A stretch of 10,514 nucleotides of DNA, from the NCBI GenBank assembly GCA_043822305.1, contig JBDRBU010000032.1, forward strand, positions 1-10,514. The letters run 5' to 3'. The position numbers and the translations under genes are program-made. This DNA comes from Candidatus Firestoneibacteriota bacterium (GTDB taxonomy: Bacteria; Oederibacteriota; D2-FULL-39-29; JBDRBU01). The notes below the pieces were generated by a model. It was not told the DNA's origin. It made no database searches and was given only the letters and a program-made list of their open reading frames with translations. This document shows, in pieces, positions 283 to 1,400 of this stretch; position 1 is the stretch's first letter, and every line of letters starts with the position of its first letter.

Positions 283-1260
283 TTAAAAATAAAAACTTAA
301 ATGTATATTAAACATTACTGCAATTCCCCTATCTCCGGATTTCAAGATAATATAATTTGCCCCTTGGTAATAATTCCGCATATAAGATATTCCTGTATCT
401 AGTCCTATTCCAATAGGAGCAAAATATAGCTCAGTCCCAATAAAACCACCTGCATTATAATAATTATCTATAGTATCAATGGCTCTATTACCACTATAAC
501 GAACGGCTAAACTATAATCAACACCTAAATATGGATAAATAACAGATCCCTCAGATATAAATAAATAATATCCCCGTCCTCCAATACTCCATGTCCGCAA
601 ATATATTTCGGCTAAAATATTATCACTAATACCGTATCTTATATGAAAACCAGGATAATTAAGGCCTATAGCAACTCTATTTGCGAAACTTGTTGTTTCG
701 ATTGTTTTATATTGTATGCGTTTATTTATTTTCTCTTCTTTTTTTTCTGCCGGTTTTTCAACTTCCTTTTTCTCCTCTTTTACCTCAACTCCTGATAATT
801 GACCAGCCACCTTTTTTGTTAACGCTTCAATTTCATCTAAATCCTTGCACTTCTCTCTTAGTGAAAATACGATGGCTGATGTTTCCACATCTACAACACT
901 TACTTCAAGATAATAGAACGTTCCTAGTTTTGACAAGGTTCCAACAACCATCTTTCTTACATTTAATATTCTCCCCACTTCAACAGCACACTCCATATTC
1001 GTACAACCTGACATCTGAAACTTCTGCTCATTTAATATTTTGTCCATATTTGTTCTATCTAATACTGTAAATTTCTGAGTATTAACCATATCGCTTCTTA
1101 AAAAATTCGCTACTATTTCAGCTTCTGCTGCTGATACAACTTTTGCATCAAAAGTAGCAACTGCTATCTTCTCTTTTTCTGCACCGAAAGTTAAATCACA
1201 AAAAAGAATTAAGAAACTTACAAAAAATAATATACTCTGTTTTTGTCGAGTAGAACTCAT
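283..1260 (-). CDS. Exported CsgG/HfaB-like protein with a C-terminal beta-strand-rich (outer-membrane-like) domain; 3' exon of an intron-interrupted gene
   Basis: Hydrophobic signal peptide (KQSILFFVSFLILFCDLTFGA). CsgG-like segment 'KFTVLDRTNMDKILNEQKFQMSGCTNMECAVEVGRILNVRKMVVGTLSKLG', K/E-rich linker, amphipathic strands ending in ...HLSFYF. Spliced form is join(1911..1908,1244..283), 321 aa, starting MKKQSIL. Unspliced form from the intron-internal ATG at 1260 is 325 aa, starting MSSTRQKQSIL. Confidence 0.75.
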   Translation of the reverse strand: MSSTRQKQSILFFVSFLILFCDLTFGAEKEKIAVATFDAKVVSAAEAEIVANFLRSDMVNTQKFTVLDRTNMDKILNEQKFQMSGCTNMECAVEVGRILNVRKMVVGTLSKLGTFYYLEVSVVDVETSAIVFSLREKCKDLDEIEALTKKVAGQLSGVEVKEEKKEVEKPAEKKEEKINKRIQYKTIETTSFANRVAIGLNYPGFHIRYGISDNILAEIYLRTWSIGGRGYYLFISEGSVIYPYLGVDYSLAVRYSGNRAIDTIDNYYNAGGFIGTELYFAPIGIGLDTGISYMRNYYQGANYIILKSGDRGIAVMFNIHLSFYF

Positions 1261-1400
1261 AGCCACCTCCTCGAGGACACTATGAGTCCCCTCACGGAAC
1301 TGGACGTGAAGTTTTCCCTCATCCAGCTCTTCAAGTATATCTCCCTATTTTGACCCTCAAAGGTCATTTTTAAGGTAATTGGGTTAGGTTGCGTTGCCAA
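1257..1400 (-). pseudogene. Remnant of the intron-encoded protein start; 47-codon mini-ORF reading through D4-D5-D6
   Basis: GGAG at 1409-1406, then TTG at 1400, at the usual IEP start position just after D3. First residues (L/M)ATQPNPITLK resemble group II IEP N-termini from memory. No RT motifs follow. Stop TGA at 1259-1257. Confidence 0.55.
1297..1329 (-). ncRNA. Group II intron catalytic domain 5
   Basis: 33-nt hairpin GAGCUGGAU...AC-GUCCAGUUC with AGC catalytic triad, purine-rich loop and AC bulge. Confidence 0.93.

Follow-up and report, generated by a model that had tools for sequence, protein, structure and literature searches.

How can a gene remain expressible once a group II intron has entered it directly behind the start codon? 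The question is raised by a 10,514-nucleotide (nt) stretch of DNA, here called the window, which is contig JBDRBU010000032.1 of a Candidatus Firestoneibacteriota bacterium (assembly GCA_043822305.1) and on whose minus strand a group II intron of 663 nt without a protein gene (1907-1245) interrupts the gene of a CsgG/LpoB-like secreted protein. Bacterial group II introns are thought to avoid genes, since insertion makes the host reliant on splicing. The intron in the window probably belongs to a lineage with an alternative to such avoidance: its members would land on a start codon and bring a replacement start within domain 6 (D6), and in a subclade without an open reading frame (ORF) ribosomes would read through the ribozyme and restart at D6. 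This grouping, a start-site lineage with a D6 start signal, was defined in the present analysis.

The intron and its host gene

The intron extends from GUGUG to ...CUACUCGAC and scores above the cut-offs of two Rfam models. RF02005 (group-II-D1D4-6) matches over its full model length at 1872-1627 with 76.5 bits (cut-off 49), starting 35 nt from the intron 5' end, and RF00029, which covers domain 5 (D5) and D6, matches at 1331-1245 with 48.8 bits (cut-off 40). The 5' end lies at G1907, where GUGUG (1907-1903) agrees with the GUGYG rule, and the 3' end at C1245, where ...UCUACUCGAC closes with GAC (1247-1245) in agreement with the AY rule. Domain 5 (1329-1297), delimited by the Rfam alignment and the fold, reads GAGCUGGAUGAGG GAAA ACUUCACGUCCAGUUC and contains the AGC triad. 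Domain 6 (1294-1247) consists of a basal stem with a bulged A1251, a 12-bp stem that includes an ATG and an apical hairpin that includes a Shine-Dalgarno (SD) sequence; A1251, the branch A, is the seventh nucleotide from the intron end. Within the domain 1 core (1872-1627), two exon-binding sites (EBS) were assigned by their complementarity to the 5' exon, EBS2 being read by eye. EBS1 UCAUAA (1708-1703) is complementary to UUAUGA (1913-1908), the intron-binding site IBS1 TTATGA, which holds the host ATG (1911-1909) together with the first base of codon 2, and EBS2 UCACC (1736-1732) is complementary to GGUGA (1918-1914), proposed by eye as IBS2 and part of the host gene's SD region GAGGTGA (1920-1914). 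With its end motifs, D5 triad, bulged A, domains D1-D4 and EBS-IBS complementarity, the element shows the hallmarks of a group II ribozyme and, as far as sequence can tell, is a group II intron with a putative ability to splice.

The 5' exon ends ...GAGGTGATTATGA at A1908 and the 3' exon opens with AAAAACAG, so that the ligated exons (junction written as a slash here and below) read ATG A/AA AAA CAG AGT ATA, an in-frame signal-peptide start. The 3' exon (1244-283, minus strand) holds the rest of the CsgG/LpoB-like gene (Pfam CsgG PF03783, E 1.1e-8). The spliced N-terminus MKKQSILFFVSFLILFCDLTFG... (MKKQSIL...) is a typical signal peptide. Four of six homologs inspected in related genomes have a comparable start, in which ATGA or GTGA leads into Lys/Arg and then a signal peptide (MKK, MRK, MKR, VKK); one of the other two has no such start and one is ambiguous. 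When 99 genomes of the phylum were searched at the protein level, only paralogs with at most 46% identity came up and no uninterrupted ortholog.

No reverse transcriptase (RT) ORF lies within the 663 nt, and the intron thus lacks the RT/maturase in D4 that marks a mobile group II retroelement. The genome, 96.8% complete, has no other copy of it, and no group II intron RT/maturase was found elsewhere in that genome (the one RVT_1 match scores 166 bits, against a TIGR04416 cut-off of 300). This match is a 338-aa RT on contig C65 of the same genome (G000; locus L258:1291-2307); it looks like part of a diversity-generating retroelement and not like a maturase, since the neighbouring ORFs resemble formylglycine-enzyme and C-type-lectin proteins, as judged by eye without a domain search.

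A putative start signal within domain 6

On the minus strand, D6 reads GGAGGTGGCT ATG AGT TCT ACT CGA C/AA AAA CAG. The SD GGAGGTG (1270-1264) stands 3-5 nt ahead of an ATG (1260-1258) that is located 16 nt before the 3' splice site and begins a 325-codon frame ending at 283, with the N-terminus MSSTRQKQSIL.... The ATG forms part of AUGA (1260-1257) and overlaps a TGA (1259-1257), and the SD corresponds to codons R-R-W in the read-through frame of related introns. An earlier note on this DNA, made from the letters alone, had claimed that D6 provides an SD and an ATG in frame with the host ORF, and both the sequence and the frame bear this out. It had also described a near copy of the 5' junction in D6. 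The count is correct, with GAGGTGGCTATGAGT (1269-1255) and GAGGTGATTATGAGT (1920-1906) identical at 13 of 15 positions, but the second of these is not exon throughout, because its last two letters, GT, are the first two of the intron. When at most two mismatches are allowed, the window holds only two matches against 0.03 expected, and none of 200 shuffles contained two.

In the minimum-energy fold, the ATG is paired within the 12-bp stem and the branch A is found at 1251, both as the note had it, and D6 alone reaches -25.9 kcal/mol. The SD, which the note had placed in a loop, is not free: its GAGG pairs with CCUC (1276-1273) in the small apical hairpin.

Conservation and phase in related introns

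Related introns were found by a DNA search of the 99 phylum genomes (G000 included) and by two wider scans. The pattern of the genome-contig scan comprised only the 3' strand of D5 and the first bases of the D6 5' strand, while that of the metagenome scan was the first 20 nt of the intron; both ignored the exons and the D6 loop and are hence unbiased toward the features tested. The former returned at least 119 stretches, or 119 entries after deduplication, seven of them without a recognisable 3' splice site, and the latter at least 120 matches. The counts from both scans apply to the matches listed.

In the genome scan, 46 of 112 entries have a start codon at a distance of exactly 13 or 16 nt from the splice site that follows it, and 43 of these 46 D6 starts have no stop ahead of the junction. 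An SD of at least 4 nt precedes the start in 41 of the 43 introns, and one of at least 5 nt in 31. The other 66 entries, mostly with a short GNRA-type D6, have no D6 start. At either distance the AUG is always in phase with the exon. According to the record titles, carriers among the matches listed belong to Campylobacterota, Fibrobacterota, Sedimentisphaerales, Spirochaetia, Melioribacteraceae, Dehalococcoidia, candidate division WOR-3, Omnitrophota and several methanogen-related archaea. The metagenome scan approached the matter from the other end of the intron: among its listed matches, 61 of 98 unique 5' exons of at least 16 nt were of the start type (51 ATGA, 7 ATGG, 1 GTGA and 2 TTGA), with an SD 8-20 nt upstream in 57. 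Fourteen of the 16 complete introns stand behind start-type exons, and all 14 carry an SD and an ATG at -13 or -16.

The 5' junctions of bacterial introns with a D6 start read ATGA/ in 16 of the 17 cases visible, namely in the window, at loci L080 and L067, and in the copies of genomes G076 (five) and G101 (eight); that of L037 reads ATCGA/. The five G076 copies, of which one is ORF-less and four encode an RT/maturase (TIGR04416, 366 bits), are all inserted after GGAGGC-N4-5-ATGA/, and the D6 of all five reads AAAGGAGGTTATAAAAG-ATG(or GTG)-TCTACTCACA/, in phase with signal-peptide-like exons. A search of the 301 genomes of the phylum of G099 gave no match beyond the copies of G099 itself. EBS1 and IBS1 covary among the relatives: UCAUUU of L176 fits AAATGA and CUAUAG of L273 fits CUAUAG, in both cases completely, and EBS1 of L140 and L080 fits IBS1 at five of six positions.

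Individual relatives show how the signal behaves when the site changes. L273, a close relative at the non-start site TTTCTATAG/, has exchanged the D6 AUG for ACG with a compensating change of CAU to CGU, and read-through in its host frame halts at codon 8. L272, likewise at a non-start site, has 13 stops in frame. At L160 the upstream ATG is gone (SD...AAAAAGA/), and the SD and ATG of D6 are kept. Based on these comparisons, an SD and AUG in D6 is a trait of the lineage that recurs across several phyla and stands in phase at sites of the form SD-N-ATGA/. The window has both halves of it, with SD-spacer-ATGA in the 5' exon and a D6 SD and ATG 16 nt upstream of the junction without an intervening stop. 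The claim that the intron hands its host gene a putative in-frame start thus gains support from the relatives behind start-type exons, which keep the SD and ATG in phase. Homologs that lack the SD and ATG, or carry them in random frames, had been named beforehand as the outcome that would speak against it; the relatives did not give that outcome. In addition, a crude hydropathy cut was passed by 19 of 30 exons behind D6 starts versus 7 of 19 others, a difference that is suggestive only.

Ribozymes stop-free in the host frame

In ORF-less relatives, the frame entered from the host start codon stays open through nearly the whole intron. The first stop in this frame is codon 213 in L140, 208 in L176, 211 in L080 and 230 in the eight 719-nt copies of G101; RT-bearing relatives have theirs at codon 10-37 among the matches listed. 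In L140, L176 and L080 the frame closes with a single TGA, reached through ...AGG AGG TGG CTA TGA and overlapping the D6 ATG (cuAUGAg). The G101 copies have a first stop, TAA, 20 nt before the D6 ATG and then one more. The other two frames of these introns contain 11-20 stops each, and none of 2000 dinucleotide shuffles matched the lengths of the through-frames. Three copies in G102 are open to the contig ends (>132, 132 and 152 codons). L272 and L273, ORF-less introns at non-start sites, have early stops.

A protein search with the 212-aa product of the L080 intron returned 346 clusters, labelled in their source as hypothetical proteins of Dehalococcoidia, Omnitrophota, Syntrophoarchaeum and Halobacteriota among the matches listed. 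Of the 120 clusters listed, 111 cover at least 90% of the query at 51-84% identity and mostly measure 200-237 aa; 91 start with M[SGRK][AVMS][PS][SR], which is ATG-A joined to GUGCGCC..., and 97 have the ..RWL-like end that corresponds to the D6 TGA. The read-through product matches no Pfam family. The three codon positions take up differences between relatives in a ratio of about 1:1:1 and synonymous changes are outnumbered 3- to 5-fold by non-synonymous ones, while 90 of 197 predicted RNA pairs show compensatory change in an alignment of six relatives that includes the window's intron. Between the window and L176, part of the length is read in different registers, both of them open. By this pattern of substitution, the peptide is not under selection at the protein level and the RNA helices are constrained. 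Without a Pfam family or a codon-position signal, the read-through product was rejected as a real protein.

One member of the protein set has a different build. In P0032 (286 aa), 70 residues of a host enzyme (PF01663) are fused in frame to ribozyme read-through, the intron having inserted after an internal ATG-A inside the coding region.

The broken through-frame of the window copy

The copy in the window departs from this pattern. The read-through frame from the host ATG (1911-1384, minus strand) comprises 174 stop-free codons after the ATG and ends at TAA 1386-1384. The three frames of the intron contain 3, 14 and 14 stops, and none of 2000 shuffles reached the read-through length. A second open frame in the +1 register (1475-1257, minus strand), homologous to the last third of the through-frame of the relatives, ends with ...SVRGLIVSSRRWL and the D6 TGA. 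A single frameshift within 1475-1387 parts the two frames, with a 2-nt gap relative to the relatives near 1446; the length of 663 nt is 0 mod 3, that of the relatives 2 mod 3. Because of this shift, a route by coupled translation cannot work in the window copy as assembled, and expression of its host gene would need splicing, for which the genome offers no maturase, or weak direct initiation in D6.

The frameshift may itself be an assembly error. The guanylate kinase gene gmk (5897-5279, minus strand) is similarly split into two overlapping ORFs, which cover PF00625 positions 2-129 and 114-180, with the shift near 5515-5495 beside homopolymer runs of A and of T; it reflects either a genuine frameshift in this essential gene or an assembly indel.

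Public sequencing runs show word shares of at most 0.10 with the locus and none carries it. When four runs were mapped, fragments of related introns were recovered, and nothing on the exons of the locus. A metatranscriptome contig with a related unspliced intron behind AAAGGAGGATACTTATGA may reflect DNA carry-over and was not used as evidence.

A model of read-through and restart, and its alternatives

The anatomy, conservation, phase, stop-free frames and RNA covariation are observed; translation, whether from the D6 start or along the through-frame, is inferred. The EBS loops would pair with the host stretch from SD to ATGA, leading to insertion between the first and second bases of codon 2. 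From unspliced RNA, the SD and AUG of D6 would keep the interrupted gene expressible, with MSSTRQKQSIL... as its product in place of the MKKQSIL... of spliced RNA and with the same signal-peptide core; the two isoforms would share everything but the first residues of a signal peptide, which may explain why many targets have hydrophobic N-termini. In ORF-less introns, ribosomes loaded at the host start would read about 210 codons through D1-D6 of the unspliced intron and melt the 5' strand of D6, which would free the locked AUG and SD. Termination at the UGA of cuAUGAg and reinitiation at the AUG that overlaps it would follow, the SD falling within the last four codons of the through-frame. An SD in the last upstream codons combined with a stop that overlaps the start is the classical layout of coupled genes. 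As the host SD and AUG are the pairing partners of EBS1 and EBS2, a folding ribozyme and a loading ribosome should be in competition at the 5' end, and translation through the ribozyme would compete with its folding and splicing. A stronger version, in which a catalytic RNA of ~640-720 nt has been shaped to be translationally transparent, that is, stop-free, read through and restarted at D6 with a meaningless peptide as the product, has about an even chance of being right.

A number of observations weigh against read-through and restart. In the predicted fold, pairing ties up the D6 AUG and half of the SD, so that direct ribosome initiation on folded D6 should be weak; the splice-or-translate switch imagined in the earlier note is plausible as such, but ribosomes would probably load poorly on a folded D6. 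The window copy has a broken through-frame, in which read-through stops 124 nt short of the D6 AUG, and the public runs offer no reads of this locus. The D6 SD/AUG motif is retained by relatives at non-start sites, archaeal and other (L272, L077 and, with an in-frame TGA, L028), which means that it can persist without an in-frame host start. Three relatives carry the in-frame stop ACT TGA C, and the ORF-less introns of L199 (754 nt) and L003 (786 nt) have early stops in the host frame. An in-phase frame of at least 50 codons follows in 28 of 43 cases with a D6 start versus 20 of 62 without, and in 7 of 11 of the metagenome set, among the matches listed in both scans; L189 and L141 stop at the first exon codon. 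Such short or stopped exon frames imply that some targets are not ordinary genes. Finally, the copies are related by descent, and the counts overstate the number of independent events.

Shared descent and the persistence of the motif in L272 and L077 would also suit a purely structural origin, in which the SD-like run and the AUG are conserved sequence of an extended D6 helix, the phase is a trivial outcome of a constant insertion point (ATGA/) and a constant D6 geometry, no protein is made from unspliced RNA and the gene depends wholly on splicing. In most members the AUG does have CAU as its pairing partner within the D6 stem, although a tally of its partners is circular in a set chosen for having ATG and was not used as a test. 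What a relic of this kind does not account for is that the phase is kept at either of two offsets (13 and 16 nt), that 43 of 46 D6 starts have no stop before the junction, that the SD is kept in 41 of 43 introns whose upper D6 is otherwise unalignable, and that L273 lost the AUG at a non-start site by a compensated change. Nor does structure alone explain stop-free frames that end at the D6 AUGA in 97 of 120 clusters, the counts again being those of the matches listed. This origin is quite unlikely. The length conservation of hundreds of open frames could instead mean that translation serves the intron, either through a basic polypeptide acting as a chaperone or through bound ribosomes that shield the RNA from decay, and ribosome association has been reported, in the accessible part of PMC3851717, to protect Ll.LtrB RNA. 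The lack of a third-position excess, the predominance of non-synonymous changes, the part of the window frame that is shifted relative to L176 and still open, the absence of a Pfam match and the invariable end of the frame at the host restart codon speak against such a service, which appears very improbable.

At the level of the single locus, the intron might be dead, with the D6 ATG as the only working start of the gene and neither a switch nor isoforms. The missing group II RT in a 96.8%-complete genome, the single D5/D6 match and the broken through-frame would fit; against this, GUGUG, the AGC triad and the bulged A remain intact, as do the EBS-IBS complementarity and both Rfam scores, and 90 of 197 pairs covary in the alignment of six relatives, to which the window contributes without its pairs having been tallied separately. 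Moreover, the ORF-less intron C.te.I1 is said, in what is available of PMC4424553, to self-splice without a maturase, and the D6 ATG lies buried within a hairpin of -25.9 kcal/mol. Local exaptation is accordingly unlikely, though not far-fetched. The resemblance between D6 and the 5' junction raises one further option, that the D6 SD..ATGA is a decoy or an internal partner of EBS1/EBS2, or the landing site of a second intron. Besides the 13/15 identity, CUAUGA in D6 could pair with five of the six EBS1 bases. Yet the closest relatives, L176, L140, L080 and L123, share the D6 sequence GGAGGTGGCTATGAG beside differing 5' exons and EBS loops, from which it follows that the segment is not a copied target, and the 13-nt type of D6 (..ATGTCTAC) has no ATGA. 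The two sequences resemble each other because both are translation start regions. No intron-like insertion was noticed in the D6 regions viewed, twintrons not having been searched for systematically. The near duplication reported in the earlier note is thus not a designed feature, and target mimicry and nested insertion, the latter raised in the note and unsupported in the D6 regions viewed, were rejected; their probability is very small. A start-site lineage with restart in D6 thus remains the probable reading.

Other domain 6 variants

Further D6 architectures were seen among the relatives. A conserved insert of ~70 nt (..ATATTGTGACACTC..GAAAG..GAGAAACAGGGAATACAAAG..), which looks structured and mostly lies upstream of the SD and ATG, is present in L029, L040, L059, L070, L084, L086, L087, L097, L101, L107, L130 and L137. 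In L035, L042, L049, L065, L066, L068, L085, L109 and L131, mostly Clostridia-type records, GAAAGGAG is followed by GTCGAG..N8..CTCGAC/; there is no D6 ATG in this variant and the exon has an ATG 5-10 nt past the splice site. These introns seem to sit between SD and ATG, and the hairpin may bring a new SD near the exon start codon. At L017 (G014:C28), a related intron outside any start site, D6 measures 102 nt and contains GGAGG-N9-ATG, whose ATG begins a short frame, MANLNGHE..., across the 3' splice site; similar N-termini occur in the database proteins P0097 and P0116. In L056, a candidate division WOR-3 record, the 3' half of D6 (CCTCGTGGTGGACTCCCAAAAGGGGTTGGCCACGAGGCCTACTCGAC) is repeated in tandem at the intron end.

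Implications and comparison with known systems

If confirmed, the proposed arrangement would represent one RNA selected both as a ribozyme fold and as a meaningless open frame, and a natural test bed for the competition between translation and RNA folding. For annotation, ribozymes, translated or mis-called, probably account for at least 346 protein clusters, hundreds of 'hypothetical proteins' of ~210-225 aa would be translated ribozymes if the transparency of the catalytic RNA is real, and genes behind start-site introns are given wrong starts. The design also suggests intron-based insertions that leave the target gene unsilenced.

Several known systems share parts of this arrangement. In translational coupling, a stop and a start overlap (AUGA or UGAUG) and the downstream start is masked by structure until a translating ribosome opens it. 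The introns described here have the same elements, with the SD in the last codons of the upstream frame, overlap of stop and AUG and a sequestered start, but their 'upstream cistron' is a catalytic RNA whose sole conserved coding property is the absence of stops. In the yeast mitochondrial introns aI1 and aI2, the frame continues from the upstream exon through D1-D3. A frame in phase with the upstream exon hence crosses ribozyme domains there as well; it encodes an RT/maturase, whereas nothing is conserved in the frame of the window lineage, which ends at the host restart codon. A related idea, in which translation reinitiates within the unspliced introns of eukaryotic genes that have been transferred, is contained in the accessible text of PMC11317163.

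Among group II introns, the nearest parallel is a monophyletic IIB1 family located in or next to initiation or termination codons, which the available text of Gomes et al. (2025; PMC12584367) credits to Michel et al. (2007). All of its members are described there as having domain I enlarged at its base by a 5'-subterminal insertion of 300-700 nt, and the way in which the family colonises such codons is called unknown; the members studied are Avi.groEL and EcKTE56.groEL, where the groEL UAA is replaced by UAG. Like this family, the intron in the window sits at such a codon, having inserted at an initiation codon (after ATG-A), and leaves a usable codon behind. Its entire length is 663 nt without a domain I insertion, however, and it is therefore not assigned to the family, whose summary in PMC12584367 mentions neither an SD/AUG in D6 nor a stop-free ribozyme. 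In the accessible text of Zimmerly and Semper (2015; PMC4424553), three target specificities are distinguished (homing sites, terminators and attC), bacterial ORF-less introns are considered rare, with a related intron protein encoded elsewhere in the genome in nearly every case, and the terms 'start codon', 'initiation codon' and 'Shine-Dalgarno' do not occur. C.te.I1 of Clostridium tetani is treated in the same source: like the intron in the window, it is ORF-less, resides in a genome without an intron-encoded protein and interrupts a surface-protein gene, but the description deals with alternative splicing and includes no start-codon target, D6 start signal or through-frame (PMC4424553). 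A search of the full-text literature found no description of an SD/AUG in D6 or of a stop-free ribozyme; Michel et al. (2007) and Simon et al. (2008) lie outside its coverage, and an earlier mention is possible. Group IIC-attC introns, finally, carry internal outward-facing promoters, according to the part of PMC3001079 available. These introns differ in class (IIC) and target (attC), and their signal is a promoter and not a translation start, with no relation to a reading frame; what they have in common with the lineage proposed here is that an expression signal of a mobile intron serves the downstream host gene and lowers the cost of insertion.

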